25,612 nucleotides of DNA, taken from Bdellovibrionales bacterium. GTDB taxonomy: Bacteria > Bdellovibrionota > Bdellovibrionia > Bdellovibrionales > UBA840. The stretch is taken from NCBI GenBank assembly GCA_037969075.1, contig JBBKWS010000163.1, positions 1 to 25,612 on the forward strand. Reading direction: 5' to 3'. Of the stretch, positions 1 through 20,588 are shown in pieces. The notes beneath the pieces were generated by a model that was not told the origin of the DNA, ran no database searches, and saw only the letters and a program-made list of their open reading frames with translations. How positions within the stretch are numbered: position 1 is the first letter of the stretch; every line of letters begins with the position of its first letter. The translations under genes and the position numbers were made by a program.

Positions 1-453
1 CAAAAAAATCATATTAAGCCTGTATGGCAAGAGTCTGAAGATGTTGATGAGTTAAAAGAAAAGTTTTTGCAAAAGCTTCCTGCTAGAGGTGTAAAGGCAT
101 TTATCTTTTCTCAAAACACGAAACTGATTGGTTATATTCAGTATTACAGCGCACCTTCAATTGGCGGCGGGTGGTGGGAAAAAGAGCTTCCCGGTACTTA
201 TGGTATCGATCTTATGATTGGAGATGAAAAAAAAATGGATATGGGGATTGGTCATAATGTGATTAAAGAGTTTATTTCATTTATATGTAAAGTAGAGTCC
301 GATGTGAAGTCAGTAATCGTTGATCCATAACCATCGAATGTAAAGGCAATTCGAGCATTTGAAAAAGCTGGTTTTATACAAGAGGCCAAAATGGAAACAC
401 TAAACGGTACGGCTATTTTAATGCGTTTTAAAATTACCTCCCACCACCAGTGA
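1..453 (+). pseudogene. AAC(6')-Ib-like GNAT acetyltransferase, cut by the window edge at 5', with an in-frame premature stop (TAA 328-330)
   Basis: Frame is open from base 1 (QKNHIKPVW...). Motifs IGYIQYY, GGGWWE, GIDLMIG and GIG are present. After VIVDP* the same frame continues PSNVKAIRAFEKAGF...SHHQ* (TGA 451-453), the conserved DPxPxNxxAIRxxEKAGF C-terminal motif of AAC(6')-I-type GNATs. Confidence 0.85.
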
Positions 454-815: not shown

Positions 816-1331
816 ATGAAATATCTATTGATTACTTTTATTCTTTGTATGCAGTCGTTAGCTTACGCGCAAGAGCGAAAAGTATGCGACGCTTTAGAGC
901 TAGAGCGCGACGTGATCGAAGCGGAAAGAGACGGCGTCACTCCAGAAGGTTACTGCCGCTCGGGTGGAGGCTCAAATTGTAGTTTAGCAGATAATTACGG
1001 TGAGGCAGTTTGCCGCGTAAACCAAGGTTCTAATTGCAGTTTAGTTGATGAATTGGGTGAAGGTATTTGCCGTGCCATGAACGGCTCAAATTGTATTTTG
1101 GTGGATAATGTCGGCCAAGGAGTTTGTCGTGCTGCTGGCGGATCGAATTGTTCTTTGGTTGAAAACTACGGCGAAGGTATTTGCCGCGCCATGAACGGCT
1201 CAAATTGTATTTTGGTGGATAATGTTGGACAAGGTATCTGCCGAGGTCTAAGTGGTTCTAACTGTAGTCTTGTAGATACTCCTGAAGAAATTAGAGAGTG
1301 GCGTTTAGAACTTAGAAAATTTTGTCGTTAA
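816..1331 (+). CDS. Secreted cysteine-rich repeat protein (six 19-aa repeats)
   Basis: AAAGGGG RBS precedes the ATG. Signal peptide MKYLLITFILCMQSLAYA. Repeat consensus [EQ]G[IV]CRx3GSNC[SI]LV[DE]NxG. Confidence 0.85.
   Translation: MKYLLITFILCMQSLAYAQERKVCDALELERDVIEAERDGVTPEGYCRSGGGSNCSLADNYGEAVCRVNQGSNCSLVDELGEGICRAMNGSNCILVDNVGQGVCRAAGGSNCSLVENYGEGICRAMNGSNCILVDNVGQGICRGLSGSNCSLVDTPEEIREWRLELRKFCR
945..1286 (+). repeat. Intragenic tandem repeat, 6 x 57 bp
   Basis: Six 19-codon units. Units 3 (1059-1115) and 5 (1173-1229) encode identical peptides and match at 54/57 nt. Confidence 0.9.
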
Positions 1332-1332
1332 A

Positions 1333-1363
1333 AATAAAAGGCTGGGTGAACCGGCCTTTTATT
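1333..1363. terminator. Bidirectional intrinsic terminator
   Basis: AATAAAAGGCTGG-GTGAA-CCGGCCTTTTATT: 13-bp arms with one G-U pair and A/T tracts on both sides, between convergent transcription units. Confidence 0.8.
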
Positions 1364-1377
1364 GATTGCGAAGGTAA

Positions 1378-1466
1378 CTACTTCTTGCCAACTTTGCCGG
1401 TGTGGTTTTTCCAGTTGTAATCTGGGTTTTTGCCAAAACGATCTTTCCAATCGTCCCATTTTTTAT
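1378..1466 (-). repeat. Direct repeat copy 1: displaced 3' end of the 56-aa gene (att-like scar)
   Basis: 89 bp, 83/89 identical to 2529-2617. On the minus strand it encodes KKWDDWKDRFGKNPDYNWKNHTGKVGKK* with no start codon in that frame. Confidence 0.95.
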
Positions 1467-2464
1467 TTATAAGAGTAGATATCTTTTCCTATATAAGTTC
1501 CTTTCCACTCGTAGCACTTTTGTTTGCCAATGCAATCAGTAGAAATAGTTAGATACCCATTGGCTTTAAGCCACTCGCCAATAAAGGAATCTATATGGCC
1601 GTGCAATAACCAAAAGTAGCGATTTACATGGCTGGATATATTTGAGCCTAAATCATCACACCTAGAACTATTTAATTCATCATCACTATCCATTATTTCA
1701 GGACATTTTGGGGATACATAATCTTCCAATTCGGCATAGAAATCATGTAAATTTGTATGTATATCAGTAGAAATTTCTTCTCCCAATTGGTTTAATGTTA
1801 CACTCTTTAAGTGGTTTGAATTTTGATAGTGAATCGTTTTGTTACGAATTATATTTAGCTGATTTTTAGCGTATATCAAGCCATCCTCTGTCGGTTCTTG
1901 TGTGTAAGCTAGTAAAGGCCACTTGCTATCTTTAAAGTCGGGTATGGATTTATAGTCTATTAAGCACGGGTTGCCGTTTGCGGTTAATTCTACATTCACC
2001 ATCTCGATCATTCGACGATGCATAAATAAAAAACTTTCGCCTTTTACAGATGTTTCTTTTATTAAGAAGGCTTTAGTATCGGATTGTGGTATCCATTTTG
2101 TATTAACATATGGAGTGATGGATTGTTTTACATCCTCCGTATATCCTTCCTCTGAGAAACTGCTGAAAATTGCATTCATTTTGTGCCAGCCATCGTGCCA
2201 CTCTCTGTGTTTGCGGCTCGCTAACATTGGCCGTATAGAATTCATGGCTTCTTCTGTAATATTATCGCTGCAAGACCGGCAAACTTTAAACTCACTGCCT
2301 GAGGTATTACAAGTGACTATGGTTTTGCCGAAATTATTTGGGTGACTACTTTCCAAGTAGCTATTAAGCCAACCTAAATCAATGCTATAAATATTAAAAT
2401 TGCCGCAAAAACTATTTTGCGCAAAAACAAGATTCATAGAAATAAATATTAAGTTTATTAACAT
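1463..2464 (-). CDS. Secreted type-3 dicopper (tyrosinase-family, PvdP-like) protein
   Basis: N-terminal signal-like segment (MLINLIFISMNLVFA). CuA-type motifs HREWHDGWH and GESFLFMHRRMI. CuB-type motifs IHTNLH and LGSNISSHVNRYFWLLHGHID. Confidence 0.75.
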   Translation of the reverse strand: MLINLIFISMNLVFAQNSFCGNFNIYSIDLGWLNSYLESSHPNNFGKTIVTCNTSGSEFKVCRSCSDNITEEAMNSIRPMLASRKHREWHDGWHKMNAIFSSFSEEGYTEDVKQSITPYVNTKWIPQSDTKAFLIKETSVKGESFLFMHRRMIEMVNVELTANGNPCLIDYKSIPDFKDSKWPLLAYTQEPTEDGLIYAKNQLNIIRNKTIHYQNSNHLKSVTLNQLGEEISTDIHTNLHDFYAELEDYVSPKCPEIMDSDDELNSSRCDDLGSNISSHVNRYFWLLHGHIDSFIGEWLKANGYLTISTDCIGKQKCYEWKGTYIGKDIYSYK

Positions 2465-2528
2465 ATGATCTATTGATTATGGGAGTAAGTACTAAGGGTC
2501 TATATTATTAGGCAAATATGTAAATATT

Positions 2529-2617
2529 CTACTTCTTACCGACTTTTCCGGTGTGATTCTTCCAATTGTAATCTGGGTTTTTGCCAAAACGATCTTTCCA
2601 ATCGTCCCATTTTTTAT
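2529..2617 (-). repeat. Direct repeat copy 2: current 3' end of the 56-aa gene
   Basis: 2566-2617 is identical to 1415-1466 (52 bp). The remaining 37 bp carry 6 synonymous differences. Confidence 0.95.
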
Positions 2618-2699
2618 CGGTGTGATCGTGCTTAACAGTGCCACCTTTATCGAAGATGATCTTAGGCTTTTTTCCAAATAAAAAAGAGATGATGCCCAT
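2529..2699 (-). CDS. Small 56-aa hypothetical protein, absent from the ORF track
   Basis: MGIISFLFGKKPKIIFDKGGTVKHDHTDKKWDDWKDRFGKNPDYNWKNHTGKVGKK*. A GGAG RBS (2707-2710) overlaps the rdgB stop. Divergence from the duplicate copy is synonymous only in this frame. Confidence 0.9.
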   Translation of the reverse strand: MGIISFLFGKKPKIIFDKGGTVKHDHTDKKWDDWKDRFGKNPDYNWKNHTGKVGKK

Positions 2700-2709
2700 A
2701 TAGTAACTC

Positions 2710-3300
2710 CTATAGATTCTGTTTTAGCTTATCTTTAAATAAACGTAAAGCAAGGCCACGATGAGAAATTTTATTTTTTTCAGCAGATGTCATCTCTGCG
2801 AGTGTTTTAGTGCTGCCCTCTGGCATAAAAACAGGGTCATAGCCAAAGCCACCCATTCCAGATTGCTTAACAGCGATAGTGCCCTTTAATTGGCCCTCAA
2901 AGGTGAACTCTTCTCCGCTTGGAGAGTAGGCCACAAGTACACATTTAAACTGAGCGTTGCGATTTGTTGTGCGAATTTGTAGCATCTTTATAAGCTTCGC
3001 CACATTTTCTTTGTCAGTTGCTTTTGCCCCAGCATATCTAGCCGAGTGAACTCCAGGTAAATGATTTAAACCTTCGCATTCTAGGCCAGAATCATCTGCT
3101 AGTACCCAAGTGCCTGGACGCATTACATGGATGGGTTTTGCTTTAATCCTGGCATTTGCCACAAATGTCTCACCCACTTCTTCAGGTGAAGAATAGTGAG
3201 GAATATCATTTTGTGCTTTAATAGTTATAGGTAGATCAGCAAGCAATGTGCGAATTTCTTGTAGTTTTCCTGGGTTAGAGCTGGCGATCCAGAGTTCCAT
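2710..3300 (-). CDS. rdgB: Non-canonical purine NTP pyrophosphatase (HAM1 family)
   Basis: Motifs ASSNPGK, ADDSGL, PGVHSARYA, GFGYDPVF and KNKISHRG; lies downstream of rph. Confidence 0.97.
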   Translation of the reverse strand: MELWIASSNPGKLQEIRTLLADLPITIKAQNDIPHYSSPEEVGETFVANARIKAKPIHVMRPGTWVLADDSGLECEGLNHLPGVHSARYAGAKATDKENVAKLIKMLQIRTTNRNAQFKCVLVAYSPSGEEFTFEGQLKGTIAVKQSGMGGFGYDPVFMPEGSTKTLAEMTSAEKNKISHRGLALRLFKDKLKQNL

Positions 3301-3305
3301 AGATT

Positions 3306-4034
3306 TTAAACCTTTAGTGGGTAAAAATGTCCTATAATTTCACTTTGCTTTTGAAATAATACAGAGCAAGCATTGACTGCTAAGTCATACATTTCATCGA
3401 GCTCTTTTTTAGTAAACGGCTCAGCCTCTGCTGTGCCTTGTACTTCAATTAAACGTTTGTCGGATGTAGCAACGAAATTCATATCTGTTTCTATGGATAC
3501 ATCTTCTTCATAGCATAAATCTACTAAGCACTTACCCTCTTTAACACCAACGCTGACTGCGGACACATAGTTTGTAAGAGGAATTTCTTTTATTAAATTT
3601 TGTTGTTTCAATTGATTGAAAGCTAGTGCCATAGCTACAAAGCCACCGGTCACGGCAGCGGTTCTTGTGCCGCCATCGGCTTGCAGTACATCACAATCAA
3701 TAATAATTTGTTTTTCACCAAGTTTTTTTAAATCAGTAACAGCGCGCAAGCTACGGCTAATTAGTCTTGATATTTCTTGGCTTCTTCCAGAGTTTGTCGC
3801 TTTGTCTCTATGAATACGGGTGTGGGTAGATCTGGGTAGCATAGAGTACTCGGCAGTTACCCAACCTTTACCGCTTCCTTGTAACCACTTCGGTAATGAG
3901 TTTTCGACAGAGGCTGTACAAATAATTTTAGTTAATCCAAATGAAACTAAGACTGAACCTTCAGAGTGCAGCACGAAATTAGGTTCAAATGAAACGGGAC
4001 GGATTTCACTATAACTTCTTTTATCTATTCGCAT
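3306..4034 (-). CDS. rph: Ribonuclease PH
   Basis: Motifs [39 protein letters not shown] and IEVQGTAE. Confidence 0.97.
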
Positions 4035-4875: not shown

Positions 4876-5304
4876 ATGTCTGAGAGCTGGAAAGTGAGCA
4901 CAATTAACGACCTTGATCCTGTGATTAAGCATATGCAAAATACTTTGCAAATAGGCGATATTGTACTATTTCGAGGGCAAGTCGGAGCGGGAAAAACAAC
5001 GCTGATAAATAAGTTTGTAAATTCAATTGGTGGCAGCAATCCTAATTCACCTACGTTTGCTATCCACAATCAGTACGAGACCTCCTTTGCCAGGATACAT
5101 CATCTAGATTTATATCGTCTAACAGACGACGAAGATTTGTACTCAACAGGGCTTGAAGACTTTTTGGCAGATAAAAATGCTATTATATTTATTGAATGGG
5201 CAGAGCGACTGTCGCAAACGCAATTACCTCGCAATCGAAGAGTATTTAAGATACACATAGATGTAGAAGATCAGAATAGAAAAATTATTTGGAGTACATA
5301 TTAA
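4876..5304 (+). CDS. tsaE: tRNA threonylcarbamoyladenosine biosynthesis ATPase TsaE
   Basis: GAGKTT P-loop plus SPTF, HLDLYRL and IEWAE motifs. Confidence 0.95.
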   Translation: MSESWKVSTINDLDPVIKHMQNTLQIGDIVLFRGQVGAGKTTLINKFVNSIGGSNPNSPTFAIHNQYETSFARIHHLDLYRLTDDEDLYSTGLEDFLADKNAIIFIEWAERLSQTQLPRNRRVFKIHIDVEDQNRKIIWSTY

Positions 5305-6422
5305 TGCCAATATTTGTAGCCACTACGCAAAAAGGTTTAGGGACTGTTTTAGCAGAAGAAATAACTTCGCTTGGTGGAAAAGTAATTAAATCTAATGATA
5401 GACAAGTTAGATTCGAATCGAATTGGAAAACTTGTTACAAGATAAACATGGGCTGTTCTATTGCCTCAAGAATTTTATTAACTATTTTAGATTTTAATGT
5501 GTATAAACCTGATGATTTATATCATCACCTGCAACAACATGATTTTACAAAGTACATCAGACCCGACCAAACACTAAAGGTTTCGGCGAAAGTTACTAAC
5601 TCTCATGCGTTTCGCGATCAAAGGTTTTTGGCGCAAAAGACAAAGGATGCTATTGTTGATCAGTTTACGGATGCATATGGCGAGAGACCAAATGTTGATA
5701 ATGAAAACCCAACCCTTACTATTGTTGTACGAGTTGTAGATACAGTGGTGAATGTAAGTTTAGATACATCGGGAAATCCACTTTTTCAGAGGGGATACCG
5801 AAGAACCCAAGCTGACGCCTCGATGAAAGAAAGTTTAGCTAGTGGAATCGTAAGAGCAAGTAATTGGAAGCAAAATACAAATCTATATGACCCAATGTGC
5901 GGAGCAGGGACTATTTTAATTGAAGCTGCTAGGTGGGCTAAAAAAATGTACCCAGGTTTACACCGCAGATTTGCTTTTGAACATTGGAAGACGTTTCAAC
6001 ATGACGCTTACGAAGAGGTTTTTCAAGAGCTTAGGTCGCAAGAATGTTCTACCGATTTACGGTTTTATGGTTTTGATATTGACTCTAGGGTGATTGATAT
6101 TGCCCGCGATAATGCAAAGGCTGCAGGGGTAGATGATATTGTTGAGTTTAAGCAGCTTGCAGTTAAAGATTTTAAAGCATTCGAAGAAAAGGCAACGGTG
6201 ATTACAAACCCTCCTTACGGTGAACGCCTAGGCACAGTTGAAGAGTTAAAAGATTTTTATACCCAATTGGGGGAAGTGTTTTATCAACTTAAAAACTGGG
6301 ACCTATGGATATTATCTGGCAATAAAGAGCTTCCAGCAAAGATGAGATTAAAGGCACAACACAGATTGCCAGTCTGGAACAGTGAGATTGAGTGTAAATT
6401 TCTTCATTATCCCATTTATTAG
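5304..6422 (+). CDS. THUMP-domain RNA m2G methyltransferase (RlmL/YpsC-like)
   Basis: THUMP region and motifs SLDTSGNPLFQRGYR, DPMCGAGTILIEAA, GFDID and TNPPYGERLG. The likely start ATG overlaps the tsaE stop (TAATG). Confidence 0.9.
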   Translation: MPIFVATTQKGLGTVLAEEITSLGGKVIKSNDRQVRFESNWKTCYKINMGCSIASRILLTILDFNVYKPDDLYHHLQQHDFTKYIRPDQTLKVSAKVTNSHAFRDQRFLAQKTKDAIVDQFTDAYGERPNVDNENPTLTIVVRVVDTVVNVSLDTSGNPLFQRGYRRTQADASMKESLASGIVRASNWKQNTNLYDPMCGAGTILIEAARWAKKMYPGLHRRFAFEHWKTFQHDAYEEVFQELRSQECSTDLRFYGFDIDSRVIDIARDNAKAAGVDDIVEFKQLAVKDFKAFEEKATVITNPPYGERLGTVEELKDFYTQLGEVFYQLKNWDLWILSGNKELPAKMRLKAQHRLPVWNSEIECKFLHYPIY

Positions 6423-7276: not shown

Positions 7277-7377
7277 GGATCGAAACTATGTCAAAGGGGG
7301 AACAAAGTAAACTTAAAAATAAGCCTATGTAGCGAAAAATATTGTCATTGCCTCTAGGCAGTTGTAATTTTTGTGTT

Positions 7378-9756
7378 ATGAAAATGACATTTGAAAATTA
7401 CTTAAAGACGAAATTGCCGAATATTGCGATCACCTCAGCCAAGGTTGTACTTGAGCTAGTAGCAGAAGGGGGTACTGTACCTTTTATTGCTCGTTACCGA
7501 AAAGAGAAAACTGGTAACTTAGATGAGGTACAAATTCGCGGAGTCATCGAGCTACATGAAGCTTTTGAAGAAACTGGGAAGCGCCAAGAATTCATTTTAA
7601 AAGAAATCGAGACGCAAGGTAATTTAACAGCTGAATTAAAAGCGCGGATCACTAAAAGTTTTGATCTTGGTGAATTAGAAGAAATCTACCGACCATTTAA
7701 GAAAAAGAGAAAAACAAAAGCTACCGTTGCAAGAGAAGCGGGCATAGAGCCGCTGGCAGACTGGATTTGGGATATTGGTCAGGGTAAAATAAAAGACGCT
7801 ACTTCACTAGAAGTTAAGGCAAAAGAATTTCAAAATGTTCCGGCTAACTTTGTAACTTATGAGCAAGTCTTAAAAGGTGCGCAAGATATTGTTGTTGAGA
7901 GACTAACAAACAATGCAGAGTTAAGAGAAAAAGCAAAGAATGATCTGTGGGACAATGGACAGCTGATTAGTAATAAAACGAAAGACTTTAAAGCGAACTC
8001 GAAATACTCAATGTACGCTGAGTATAAAGAGCCAATTAAAAATCTAATTTCATCAAAAGCGTCTCACAGGTATTTAGCAGTACGTCGCGGCTGGCAAGAA
8101 TCAGAGCTAAGCACCAGCTTAGAGGGTAATACAGATCAAGTTATTCATGAATACGAAAAAGTGGCATTTAGTGTTGAAAATACACAGGCTACCCCTTTTT
8201 TAAAGCAAGCTGCGAAAATGGCTTACTCGGTGTATGTACAGCCATCAATTAGTAACGAAATTCATAAAGTATTAAAAGATACAGCAGATGATCAAGCAAT
8301 TACGGTTTTTGCCGAAAATGTTAAAAAACTATTAATGGCCTCACCTTACGGAGCAAAAACTGTTTTAGGGGTAGATCCAGGTCTGCGCACAGGTTGTAAA
8401 ATTGCATTAGTCGATAAGGGTGGACATCTTTTATCACATACGGTGCTTCATACGTTGGGTGACGGAGCCAAAGAAACTGCTAAAAAAATGCTTTCAGAGT
8501 TAACTGCCAAGATAGAAATTGAAGCTATAGCCGTTGGCAATGGAACTGCCGGTAGAGAAACTGAAATATTTTTTAAATCTGCGCTAAAAGAAATAAATAA
8601 AGAAGTGCCAGTAGTACTTGTTAATGAAAGTGGTGCATCGGTGTATTCAGCATCAGATGTGGCCCGTGAAGAGTTCCCTGATTTAGATCTAACAGTTAGG
8701 GGTGCAGTATCGATTGCTAGGCGCTTGCAGGATCCACTGGCAGAGCTTGTAAAAATTGATCCAAAAAGTATCGGTGTCGGCCAGTATCAACATGATGTTT
8801 TACAAACTAAACTAAAAAAGAATTTAGATCATGTGGTTGAATCTTGCGTGAACCAAGTTGGGGTTGATTTAAACACAGCTTCGTACTCTTTACTTGCATT
8901 CGTCGCCGGTGTTGGACCAGCATTAGCTAAAAATATCACTGAATATAGAAAAACTAACGGATTGTTTCAAGATAGAGATTCTTTATTAAAAGTATCTAGA
9001 TTCTCAAATAAAATCTATGAACAGTCAGCTGGTTTTTTACGCCTGCCGAATTCTAAAAATGCATTAGATAAAACGGGTATTCACCCAGAATCCTATGCAG
9101 CAGTTAGAGATATGTCTAAAGAATTAGGTGTTACCGTTACAGATTTGATGAGCGGAAATGCAAAAAGATTATTAGAGCTACGGAGTAAGTGGGCAAAAAT
9201 AGTTGGCGAGTTTACCTTTGACGATATTATTAAGGAACTAGAAAAGCCAGGTAGAGATCCACGGGGTTCTTTTATTCCAGTAGCATTTAGAGATGATATT
9301 TTTGAAATGAAAGACGTTACAGCAGGGATGATTTGTCCTGGGGTCGTAACTAACGTTACTAACTTTGGTGCTTTTGTTGATATTGGTGTTCATCAAGATG
9401 GTCTGGTACATATATCAGTACTAAGTGACAAGTTTGTCGAAGATCCTAAGACAGTAGTGAGTCCTGGGGACCATGTACAAGTGAAAGTTATAGCTATCGA
9501 TCAAGAGAAGAAGCAGATTTCGCTATCCATGAGAATGGATGAAGCGCCAGTAAGGGCTGAAAAACCTAAACGAGAAGAAGCGCCGAAGTTCAAACCTTCA
9601 GGTCGTGACCCTCGCAAAGATTTTAAGGCAAATGCAAGAAGTGATAAGCGACCTTCTAATAACAATAAAAATAATCCAGCTGCTAGAAAACAGGCGCCAT
9701 TGAACAACGCATTTGCAGCTCTTGGTGATCAGCTAAAGGGCATTAAGTTAAAGTAA
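7378..9756 (+). CDS. tex: Tex family RNA-binding transcriptional accessory protein
   Basis: TVPFIARYRKEKTG, YqgF-like GVDPGLRTGCK, ARRLQDPLAELVKIDPKSIGVGQYQHD, HhH region and S1 domain (FGAFVDIGVHQDGLVHIS). Start is at ATG 7378 or 7384. Confidence 0.96.
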   Translation: MKMTFENYLKTKLPNIAITSAKVVLELVAEGGTVPFIARYRKEKTGNLDEVQIRGVIELHEAFEETGKRQEFILKEIETQGNLTAELKARITKSFDLGELEEIYRPFKKKRKTKATVAREAGIEPLADWIWDIGQGKIKDATSLEVKAKEFQNVPANFVTYEQVLKGAQDIVVERLTNNAELREKAKNDLWDNGQLISNKTKDFKANSKYSMYAEYKEPIKNLISSKASHRYLAVRRGWQESELSTSLEGNTDQVIHEYEKVAFSVENTQATPFLKQAAKMAYSVYVQPSISNEIHKVLKDTADDQAITVFAENVKKLLMASPYGAKTVLGVDPGLRTGCKIALVDKGGHLLSHTVLHTLGDGAKETAKKMLSELTAKIEIEAIAVGNGTAGRETEIFFKSALKEINKEVPVVLVNESGASVYSASDVAREEFPDLDLTVRGAVSIARRLQDPLAELVKIDPKSIGVGQYQHDVLQTKLKKNLDHVVESCVNQVGVDLNTASYSLLAFVAGVGPALAKNITEYRKTNGLFQDRDSLLKVSRFSNKIYEQSAGFLRLPNSKNALDKTGIHPESYAAVRDMSKELGVTVTDLMSGNAKRLLELRSKWAKIVGEFTFDDIIKELEKPGRDPRGSFIPVAFRDDIFEMKDVTAGMICPGVVTNVTNFGAFVDIGVHQDGLVHISVLSDKFVEDPKTVVSPGDHVQVKVIAIDQEKKQISLSMRMDEAPVRAEKPKREEAPKFKPSGRDPRKDFKANARSDKRPSNNNKNNPAARKQAPLNNAFAALGDQLKGIKLK

Positions 9757-19096: not shown

Positions 19097-19954
19097 ATGG
19101 CATGGATGCAGATTTTGATAGCGCTTAGTTTTTCACAAACAATTCATGGTCACAGAGGCGCTAGGGCACAGTATCCTGAAAATACTTTGCCGGCCTTCGA
19201 TTATGCCCTAGAAAATGGTGCTGACTTTATTGAGTTAGACACGCAGATGACTAAAGATGGTCATATAGTTGTACATCATGACCCCTCTATAAATAAAGAG
19301 CAGTGCTTATACGAAAATGGCGATGCAATACGAAAAGAAATACTTATTTACGAAACGAACCTTCAGGACTTGCAAACATACGATTGTGGCTCACTTGGTT
19401 CAAGAGATTTTCCTGAGCAACGGAAACTACCAGGCACAAAAATACCCACTCTTGCAGAGGTAATAGTTAATTTTAAATCTCATCTGCCTAACAATCCCAA
19501 TTTAAAGATTAATATTGAAATTAAGTATGAGGAAAATGGAAAGTATCCAGATCTACCAATGTATGTACTCGAGGTTATGAATGTTGTTAGAGACTATGAG
19601 GTCGAAGATTATGTGATTTATCAATCGTTCAGTAAAGATGCAGTTAAGCTGGTGAAGGATATGGATGAGTTGGCTACCACCTTCTTTTTATTTTCAAACC
19701 CATTTACAAACTACCAAGCTATTTTAAAAGAAACTAATGCTGATGGGGTATCAGTTCATTATGCAAGAGTGAATGCGAGTCTTGTTAAAAAAGTAAGGGG
19801 CTTAGGTAAAAAAATATTATCGTGGACTGTGAACGATGAAAAAAAATGGCGTAAATTAATAGACTTAAAAATTGATGGAATTATTACAGATGATCCTGAA
19901 GGTCTTTATAGATTCAAAAAAGAGGTGAGCCTAACCACCCCTAGATCTATTTAG
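19097..19954 (+). CDS. Glycerophosphodiester phosphodiesterase (GDPD, GlpQ/UgpQ family)
   Basis: Motifs GHRGA, PENTLPAF, IELDTQMTKDGHIVVHHD, NIEIK, WTVND and DGIITDDP. Confidence 0.93.
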   Translation: MAWMQILIALSFSQTIHGHRGARAQYPENTLPAFDYALENGADFIELDTQMTKDGHIVVHHDPSINKEQCLYENGDAIRKEILIYETNLQDLQTYDCGSLGSRDFPEQRKLPGTKIPTLAEVIVNFKSHLPNNPNLKINIEIKYEENGKYPDLPMYVLEVMNVVRDYEVEDYVIYQSFSKDAVKLVKDMDELATTFFLFSNPFTNYQAILKETNADGVSVHYARVNASLVKKVRGLGKKILSWTVNDEKKWRKLIDLKIDGIITDDPEGLYRFKKEVSLTTPRSI

Positions 19955-19957
19955 CGA
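19897..19957 (+). repeat. Degenerate direct repeat copy A (GDPD 3' end plus decayed hairpin)
   Basis: About 50/62 aligned columns are identical to 20530-20588 (hand alignment), including an exact 16-mer CAAAAAAGAGGTGAGC at 19915-19930. Confidence 0.8.
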
Positions 19958-20116: not shown

Positions 20117-20527
20117 ATGAAAAGTTTGATATTGATGAGTATGCTTTTAAGTTCAATAAGTTTTGCAGAAGGCAAAACTCCGTGCCAGCGATATCGCGAT
20201 CAAGGCAATCCGTTTACATTAGAAGAGTGGAAGCAAAATGAAAGCGAGTGCACCAACTGGATGCAAGAACGTGGAGTGAGTTGTGTTTTTAATTCAAGAC
20301 GAGCGGAAAGTTTTAAACGTCTTTGTAAGCATGTTTGTGCGACAGAAAATTTTTGCGCACCTGTGACTCCGTACAAAATTGAAGGGCCTTGCACAAAGTA
20401 TTTTAAGATCGACGGTGTAGTATGCGTCGATGAAACTGGACGAGATCGAGATCTTTGGAAGCGGGAATGTACTGATCAGCGTTTGAGCGATTTAGCTTGC
20501 ATGGATAAGAACCCCAATCACTTATAA
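20117..20527 (+). CDS. Small secreted cysteine-rich protein with two internal repeats
   Basis: GGGGGA RBS, signal peptide MKSLILMSMLLSSISFA, 10 Cys, and a CTxxxxxxGVxC...KRxC pattern that occurs twice. Confidence 0.8.
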   Translation: MKSLILMSMLLSSISFAEGKTPCQRYRDQGNPFTLEEWKQNESECTNWMQERGVSCVFNSRRAESFKRLCKHVCATENFCAPVTPYKIEGPCTKYFKIDGVVCVDETGRDRDLWKRECTDQRLSDLACMDKNPNHL

Positions 20528-20529
20528 TT

Positions 20530-20588
20530 TGAAGGTTTTATAGACAAAAAAGAGGTGAGCAAGGCTCACCTCTAGGTCAATTTAACGA
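20530..20588 (+). repeat. Degenerate direct repeat copy B (alternative GDPD tail plus intact terminator)
   Basis: TGAAGGT-TTTATAGA-CAAAAAAGAGGTGAGC...CACC.CTAG.TC.ATTTA.CGA is shared with 19897-19957. Confidence 0.8.
20546..20573 (-). terminator. Intrinsic terminator for the 878-aa gene
   Basis: Perfect 10-bp stem AGAGGTGAGC-AAG-GCTCACCTCT with an A-tract on its left (a U-tract on the minus strand). Confidence 0.85.

Follow-up and report, generated by a model that had tools for sequence, protein, structure and literature searches.

The question raised by the locus described here is how a single accessory gene, unaccompanied by any recombinase, can come to separate the coding end of a conserved gene from its terminator. 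The locus was found in a 25,612-bp stretch of DNA from a Bdellovibrionales bacterium (GenBank contig JBBKWS010000163.1, hereafter the window), which is one entire contig (C163) of a metagenome-assembled genome (MAG) labelled G000, a 2.5-Mb assembly of 211 contigs with 90% completeness and 5.7% contamination. Read on the minus strand, the genes follow one another in the order rph, rdgB, a 56-aa gene (the small gene), a 64-bp spacer, a 333-aa open reading frame (ORF) with a tyrosinase-like label (the cargo), an 89-nt orphan copy of the small gene's tail and a terminator, and a convergent Cys-repeat gene comes next. With a probability of roughly 55%, the locus is considered to be an insertion with long target duplication, in which the cargo would have been captured between related lineages by general recombination, no dedicated recombinase taking part.

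The evidence for this reading begins with the repeat itself. The two copies of the direct repeat (1378-1466 and 2529-2617; spacing of 1151 in the repeat search) are 89 nt long and 93% identical, were recovered by self-BLAST of the contig at E 1.8e-32, and occupy the only 2 places at which this sequence is found in the whole 2.5-Mb assembly, meaning that it is not a dispersed repeat. Between them lie only the 64-bp spacer and a single ORF (1062 bp in all), the TAA of which (1463-1465) is located inside the repeat. In the minus-strand reading, the leading 52 nt of both copies, hereafter the core, are identical and the trailing 37 nt, named tail A in the orphan copy and tail B in the intact gene, carry 6 differences, all of them at third codon positions (AAC/AAT, AAA/AAG, AAC/AAT, GGC/GGA, GTT/GTC and GGC/GGT). 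The two copies consequently have one translation in common, KKWDDWKDRFGKNPDYNWKNHTGKVGKK* (28 residues followed by the stop), and their similarity is bounded by TAG on one side and by ATAAAAAA on the other. The open frame around the orphan copy has just 36 codons, so that this copy is not a gene. Beyond it, the terminator hairpin was equalled in stability by 0/200 shuffled sequences. The first-pass annotation of this DNA had reported the 89-bp repeats 1151 bp apart with the tyrosinase-like gene and 64 bp between them, the division into 52 identical and 37 synonymously recoded bp with similarity ending at the stop, the terminator past the orphan copy and the cargo TAA within the repeat; the repeats and their content are present in every detail, the codon-by-codon comparison agrees with the described mosaic, and both the terminator (hairpin of -14.2 kcal/mol, z -4.24) and the position of the TAA were confirmed.

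The distribution of the differences between the two copies is informative on their history. The probability that 6/6 differences are synonymous is 3e-5 if substitutions are uniform and 8e-4 if only transitions are allowed, and the change from 0/52 differences in the core to 6/37 in the tail gives a Fisher p of 0.004, or of 0.003 when only degenerate codons are considered (0/14 vs 6/11). Therefore, the tails diverged within functional genes, and the passage from core to tail marks a recombination boundary. Judging from their codons, both tails evolved as coding sequence and represent two natural alleles of the small gene. When the 6 variable sites of the tail were compared with the sister species G001, 2 matched tail A, 3 matched tail B and 1 matched neither. 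The core DNA of G000 and G001 differs at 7 of its 52 nt, a conservation no better than that of the rest of the small gene. The core also contains an inverted repeat, ACGAT-7 nt-ATCGT, which was noticed by eye and rejected as too short to be evidence of a recombinase site.

The cargo gene is an insertion, placed where the coding sequence of the conserved small gene ends. A homologue of the 56-aa gene was found in 58/61 related genomes, with a single match in 56 of these 58, and the extra tail was found in G000 only, that is in 1/61 genomes searched. Cargo homologues are present in 3/61 of these relatives and in 15/384 genomes of the order (E <= 1e-8, G000 counted). The same figures of 58 and 3 genomes led to the rejection of a role for the small protein as a helper of the tyrosinase. 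Synteny of rph, rdgB and the small gene without the cargo was observed in G001, which has 81% DNA identity to the window, and in G003, and a metagenome scan with the small protein gave 2 distant loci (75% and 71% identical), neither of them with the cargo or an extra tail. These counts, together with the lack of a recombinase in the window, bear out the earlier proposal of an integrase-free insertion into the 3' end of a tiny gene, and the 56 single-copy genomes speak against the possibility, also raised in that annotation, that relatives all carry both copies. As to the empty-site alleles expected among relatives, single tails without the cargo do exist (G001 and G003), but no clean empty site was found at this locus. 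The small gene remains intact after the insertion.

A different origin, in which the orphan tail would be what is left of a second, tandem paralogue of the small gene after the cargo had taken the place of its 5' half, could be suggested by G029, in which two full copies of the small gene are present. These copies are, however, on different contigs, nearly all genomes with the gene hold it once as described above, and in G001, where it is also single-copy, the end of a convergent gene lies within about 60 bp of the small-gene stop. Such an origin is therefore scarcely credible.

Anatomies of this kind have been described as insertions with long target duplication, first from a genome comparison of Helicobacter pylori and later in several phyla, in the sections of the report cited here always through screens of restriction-modification (R-M) genes (Furuta et al. 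2010, PMC2853133, where Nobusato et al. 2000 is cited as ref. 37). According to the same sections, the cases concern R-M genes of Helicobacter pylori, Haemophilus, Neisseria, Campylobacter and others, and their repeats are 46-423 bp long, variable and genome-unique, some of them overlapping the 3' end of a gene (Fig. 3 legend), with no mobility genes described, and most of the cases come from naturally competent species (PMC2853133). The class is delimited there by an insert of <20 kb, direct repeats of >30 bp and a single sequence in insert-free genomes (PMC2853133). The present locus is alike in its 89-bp genome-unique repeat, its 1062-bp insert, the lack of a mobility gene and the overlap with the 3' end of a gene. 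It differs in that the cargo is not an R-M gene, which was a screening criterion of the published study and not one of anatomy, and in that the repeat is a mosaic of identical and synonymously diverged parts, implicating a second allele. The insert-free comparison is partial, since G001 and 55 other genomes are single-tailed but the downstream flank of G001 is not syntenic. In the published account consulted in part here, the mechanism is left unexplained and is tentatively tied to DNA breakage by the R-M cargo (PMC2853133).

The same build was encountered elsewhere in the genome. A self-comparison of the MAG gave 23 nearby direct-repeat pairs, 3 of which consist of a single gene between duplicated 3' gene ends; this count covers most of the 23 pairs, those on C53, C115, C159, C57 and C28 having been left out. 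The second islet is also located in the window, at the 3' end of a GDPD gene (Table 1), and its empty site in G001 holds one repeat copy including the hairpin, hence one target sequence in an insert-free genome. In the third islet, on contig C188, the repeat covers the final 42 codons of a lipoprotein-like gene (161 aa), leaving an orphan tail of 42 codons, and the enclosed secreted-looking ORF is on the opposite strand; no Pfam family was found for either protein, and the synteny with G001 stops at the stop of the lipoprotein-like gene. The repeats of the three islets are unrelated in sequence, those of the two further islets having scattered mismatches. Consequently, one recombinase with one att (attachment) site cannot explain them. 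As a control, the same pipeline was applied to the complete 1.6-Mb genome G023 from another family of the order, where 297 pairs were obtained (3 inspected, chosen by eye), mainly paralogues and internal repeats. This genome holds an islet (L086 17531-19317, that is G023:C1 497531-499317) with a DNA methylase (PF01555, E 1.8e-65) and an ORF of 81 aa, on both sides of which lies the 3' end of an ankyrin-repeat gene, duplicated over 218 bp with 97% identity. It is a textbook long-target-duplication insertion, from which it follows that other genomes than G000 have this build. That the anatomy recurs around a copper oxidase-like gene and two other non-restriction genes argues for a general host recombination route by which single genes are gained.

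The likeness of the locus to integrated elements had to be weighed against these observations. In icd of E. coli, the target of e14 (and phage 21), the intact gene likewise runs into the insert and a C-terminal fragment (icdC) is left at the far end; the icd and icdC copies differ mostly by silent changes, and loss of the insert recombines them, according to the portion of the source cited (PMC13626634). Similarly, the cis-mobilizable elements (CIMEs) of the streptococcal families of ICEs (integrative-conjugative elements) and IMEs (integrative-mobilizable elements) are described, in the part of the source used here, as having no integration or transfer genes but attL/attR-type bounds at the end of a target gene (PMC5704250). 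On this model the cargo would be an att-flanked, cargo-only cassette, CIME-like or of a stripped e14 type, with its recombinase encoded elsewhere and a crossover in the 52-bp core that displaced the resident tail. Besides the anatomy, which fits both icd/e14/icdC (PMC13626634) and the CIME definition (PMC5704250) as far as those sources are drawn on, the perfect 52-bp core beside a diverged replica of the gene is what such a cassette would leave, and recombinases do exist in the MAG (3 Phage_integrase, or tyrosine-recombinase, matches and 1 Resolvase, or serine-recombinase, match), all of them on other contigs. On the other hand, e14 is a prophage of 15 kb that has a site-specific system of its own and is excised upon SOS induction, and CIMEs derive from and move by ICEs that reuse one att site, whereas here one gene is present, no recombinase or att partner was found, and no ICE, att reuse or decay remnants were seen.

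The searches for such partners were all negative. No recombinase or transposase was found among the 19 window ORFs scanned with Pfam, which are housekeeping genes, a GNAT fragment or ORFs with no family. The search for the core covered the MAG and IMG/VR; a third copy was not found in the 90% complete MAG, and the exact 52-nt core gave 0 matches in IMG/VR. The sole viral-protein match to the small protein was dismissed as a chance 9-residue stretch (FGKNPDYN) inside a 162-aa phage structural protein. No cognate integrase was found in the islet or the window and no attP-bearing helper with this core in the MAG or IMG/VR, and use of the site was seen in 1/61 genomes and not repeatedly. In addition, the core DNA is conserved no more than the rest of the small gene, the other two islets of G000 have unrelated repeats with scattered mismatches, and the stop codon of the cargo was created by the junction. 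A cassette of this kind is consequently unlikely, and the proposal made in the first-pass annotation of a minimal satellite, mobilised in trans through a 52-bp att core, found no support in these data; its other suggestion, a homology-anchored capture from a related strain, fits the evidence better. For annotation purposes, an integrase-driven element should not be assumed just because a perfect direct repeat is present where a gene ends.

It was also of interest to establish whether the locus exists as assembled. The misjoining of strain alleles, or a mixed state made of an empty site with a free 1151-bp circle or a tandem array, could be invoked for a contaminated MAG in many contigs from a multi-strain sample, and the read-level data, which are public k=31 contigs from four runs (X1-X4) of one sample, break at the core; given that the 52-nt core exceeds k, these contigs are blind to which tail joins which side. 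However, 46 pairs of MAG contig ends overlap by exactly 119 nt, from which the final assembly k is deduced to be about 119 and therefore longer than the 89-bp repeat, and contig C163 passes both repeat copies unbroken. The junction of tail A with the core and that of the core with cargo, spacer and tail B are each supported separately, at about 70x in X1 and 13-20x in X2, and the cargo-to-core junction is at full depth in two runs. Moreover, the k-mer depth of the core (121 in X1 and 44.8 in X2) is roughly double that of its flanks (about 70 and 13-20); the contigs of X3 and X4 cover the stretch in pieces only, and no joints were listed for the four runs, a result that in k=31 contigs bears neither on circles nor on empty sites. 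In view of the assembly k and of the depths, an artefact or an abundant empty-site-plus-circle state is unlikely, and very little weight is given to this group of explanations as a whole.

The same contigs give a view of the co-occurring strains, among which recombination is visible in the cargo alleles and in the downstream DNA of a strain carrying tail B. The latter strain, of lower depth in run X1 and represented by an 811-nt contig, has the tail-B letters (the same 30 nt, 2536-2565) followed by different, hairpin-like DNA in place of the cargo; a loose end of 30 nt on its contig had no match in the MAG. A second allele of the cargo (run X2, window 1526-1606) shows 10 clustered SNPs (single-nucleotide polymorphisms), 8 of them synonymous, and its 2 replacements, D310N and I312S, equal the states of P0002, the closest homologue of the cargo. 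The clustering suggests a recombination tract within the cargo, and the pattern of 8/10 synonymous changes with P0002 states indicates that the cargo is under selection and recombining in the population.

Such allelic exchange leaves room for a history in two steps, in which an identical 89-bp duplication would first have arisen in situ, for instance by template switching or unequal sister exchange during the copying of foreign DNA, and one of the tails would later have been overwritten by an allelic import from a related strain, ending at the core/tail boundary. Such a sequence of events accounts just as well for the sharp boundary and for differences that are all synonymous, mosaic exchange is present in the cargo itself, tail B is found in another strain without the cargo, and, tail A and the Cys-repeat gene past it not having been found in 5/5 family relatives, the downstream block could be the part that was imported. 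It needs two events, however, and nothing dates the tails relative to the insertion; the unitig depths of 105.7 vs 69, by which tail B is possibly commoner, come from short unitigs and do not balance. The two-step history is therefore regarded as rather unlikely.

For the preferred capture between related lineages, two published routes offer elements of a mechanism, each known here from part of its source. In homology-facilitated illegitimate recombination, one homologous anchor and one illegitimate joint integrate foreign DNA (PMC3240628), and in transformation-triggered alternative pairing across sister chromatids, duplications (merodiploids) are produced (PMC3784515). The latter differ in being 100-900 kb long and located between repeats derived from insertion sequences (PMC3784515), and an 89-bp duplication around a 1-kb insert is not known from that route. 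Applied to the present locus, DNA from a related lineage comprising a small-gene tail, the spacer and the cargo would pair with the recipient's small gene, which would serve as the homology anchor, the crossover would fall at the core/tail boundary, and the far end of the cargo would be joined at ATAAAAAA by an illegitimate or putative microhomology junction. The topology would be that of a single (Campbell-type) crossover with a circular or sister-chromatid intermediate. The identical 52 bp would then be a stretch from one genome present in both copies, and the diverged 37 bp two natural alleles placed side by side. As a result, the accessory gene would sit between the coding end of the small gene and its terminator, with the last 89 bp of the target on both sides, and the mosaic repeat would be an unusually clean footprint of the joint between two parental DNAs. 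A related donor is plausible, since the composition of the cargo is genome-like (GC 0.353, GC at third codon positions 0.344, tetranucleotide distance at the 55th percentile) and carries no foreign signal.

Several points weigh against this capture. In its simple form, homology-facilitated illegitimate recombination leads to deletions and not to duplications, so that a circular or inter-chromatid intermediate must be assumed. A donor-like arrangement, with small gene, spacer and cargo but no orphan tail, was not seen in the DNA examined, to which the contig of P0002 did not belong. In G001, homology to the window stops at the small-gene stop and the contig ends 162 bp later, which makes it a single-tail allele but falls short of a clean empty site. 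A perfect 52-bp core next to a diverged replica also resembles the attL/attR of an e14-like element, and the read-level contigs that break at this core represent a single sample.

Should the insertion have been captured in this manner, recombination between the 52-bp repeats can be expected to remove the islet and leave an intact small gene. Going further, the duplicated tail might function as a portable homology handle, whereby ordinary accessory genes of these bacteria would move as cassettes that need no recombinase; the present one would loop out as a 1151-bp circle through recombination of the two tail copies and re-enter a relative by a single crossover with the conserved gene of that cell, carrying with it the silent-site-recoded tail of its former host. 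Such a cycle is quite improbable; if true, it would explain the presence of three same-build islets in one 2.5-Mb genome, and the "virus-like life cycle" of R-M genes, which has been proposed but, in the literature as cited here, never demonstrated, would extend to non-restriction genes. Even at its most sober, the locus is modestly interesting as an addition to a known and mechanistically unexplained class, the new points, relative to the portions of the literature cited, being the non-restriction cargo and the mosaic repeat that marks the joint of two alleles.

The cargo was then characterized by profile searches. The NCBIfam model PvdP matches it partially (E 1.4e-14, 53.5 bits vs an equivalog cut-off of 625), and a profile built from 11 cargo homologues finds the PvdP chains 6eys and 6rrp at 7e-16, through profile positions 208-301 only, and an insect phenoloxidase at 1.4e-3. 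The Pfam Tyrosinase family, on the other hand, is matched at E 0.032 with 15 bits, under the curated cut-off of 22.6. The label tyrosinase-like, in the sense of a distant type-3-copper relative, therefore appears fair. His149 and His288, which are almost invariant across the 11 homologues, are read as candidate copper ligands, and the N-terminus looks like a signal peptide. P0002, located on a 34,128-bp contig, is 73% identical to the cargo and ends in ...SYRK where the cargo ends in ...SYK; the stop codon supplied by the junction shortens the cargo by one residue relative to P0002, as expected of an arbitrary junction. The possibility that a +1 frameshift fuses the cargo to the orphan tail was dropped, because the homologues share the same end point and vary at the C-terminus. 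Scans of genome contigs with the cargo and with P0002 yielded no relative confirmed by tblastn, and at 8 other loci with cargo homologues (L004, L025, L026 and L029-L033) no flanking repeat exceeded 31 nt, those found being chance-like. Since no promoter-like or terminator-like signal was predicted on the minus strand of the 64-bp spacer, the cargo is probably co-transcribed with rph, rdgB and the small gene. It lacks a terminator of its own, probably also a promoter, and would be read through from the rph-rdgB-small operon, transcription ending at the old terminator.

Table 1. Location of the features of the locus and of the other two islets of the same genome (positions in the window unless a contig is named).
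Feature	Position	Strand	Basis and remarks
Repeat copy A, orphaned 3' part of the small gene	1378..1466	-	Core 1415-1466 and tail A 1378-1414; no homology upstream
Tail B, final 12 codons and stop of the intact small gene	2529..2565	-	6 synonymous differences from tail A
Identical 52-bp core within copy B	2566..2617	-	Codon-by-codon comparison of the copies
Intact conserved 56-aa gene (small gene)	2529..2699	-	ORF; last 89 nt are repeat copy B
64-bp spacer, small-gene stop to cargo start	2465..2528	-	Unstructured, minimum free energy -0.2 kcal/mol
Cargo, 333-aa secreted-looking type-3-copper (tyrosinase/PvdP-like) protein	1463..2464	-	ORF and NCBIfam/profile matches
Bidirectional intrinsic terminator, common to islet and convergent gene	1328..1363	.	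Hairpin -14.2 kcal/mol, z -4.24, then U-run
Convergent Cys-rich repeat protein, part of a strain-specific region	816..1331	+	ORF; tandem-repeat family D1
rdgB / Ham1-family nucleoside triphosphate pyrophosphatase	2710..3300	-	Pfam Ham1p_like, E 1e-61
rph (RNase PH), first of the conserved rph-rdgB-small gene run	3306..4034	-	ORF; 93% identical to G001, 73% to G003, order kept
Second islet, repeat copy A, 3' end of GDPD gene (19097-19954)	19897..19957	+	62 bp, 81% identical to copy B
Second islet, cargo, 136-aa Cys-rich secreted-looking ORF	20117..20527	+	Missing from the syntenic G001 site
Second islet, repeat copy B, intact terminator hairpin	20530..20588	+	Hairpin -19 kcal/mol, z -5.9
Third islet	G000 contig C188 24575-24726 / 26102-26253		152-bp repeat, 89%, around one 408-aa ORF

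The 56-aa protein has no Pfam or NCBIfam family, and its neighbours in a protein atlas are hypothetical proteins, mainly of Bdellovibrionota, every score being <= 0.80. The absence of the Cys-repeat gene from the family relatives searched indicates that the end of the small gene is the edge of a variable region. The protein encoded by this convergent gene is built of tandem 57-bp (19-aa) units, GSNC(S/I)LVD..GEG(I/V)CR, at 969-1253 and has no known family. Elsewhere in the order, homologues of the islet cargoes were seen in the vicinity of the small gene. In G251 and G252 (loci L032 and L033, of another family), the homologues of the small gene and of the cargo (the latter 32-35% identical) are convergent and some 0.9 kb apart, with an outer-membrane-like gene between the two, and in G028 (L060) a homologue of the cargo of the second islet lies about 3 kb from the small gene, several genes apart. 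These cases may be fortuitous, or variable regions may often be found next to the small gene.

Other repeated sequences were noted during the genome comparisons. A dispersed motif of about 27-34 bp, GTGACCCGAAAAAGGAASCRGGTACCT, is present in 10 copies in G000 (e.g. C2 2829-2855 and C16 4520-4546), none of them in the window, against 0 for the reversed control, and G001 has one copy directly after the small-gene stop (L005 122-162). On contig C28 of G000, a small membrane-protein gene is duplicated together with its flank (segmental duplication, 5073-5492 vs 7337-8968), and a 289-aa ORF interrupts the second copy. At the start of the window (1-453), a GNAT (Acetyltransf_8) gene contains an in-frame TAA (328-330), beyond which the typical C-terminus of the family continues, and is either a pseudogene or the product of an error. 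The end of contig C163 shares an overlap of 78 nt with contig C76, which is inverted relative to it.

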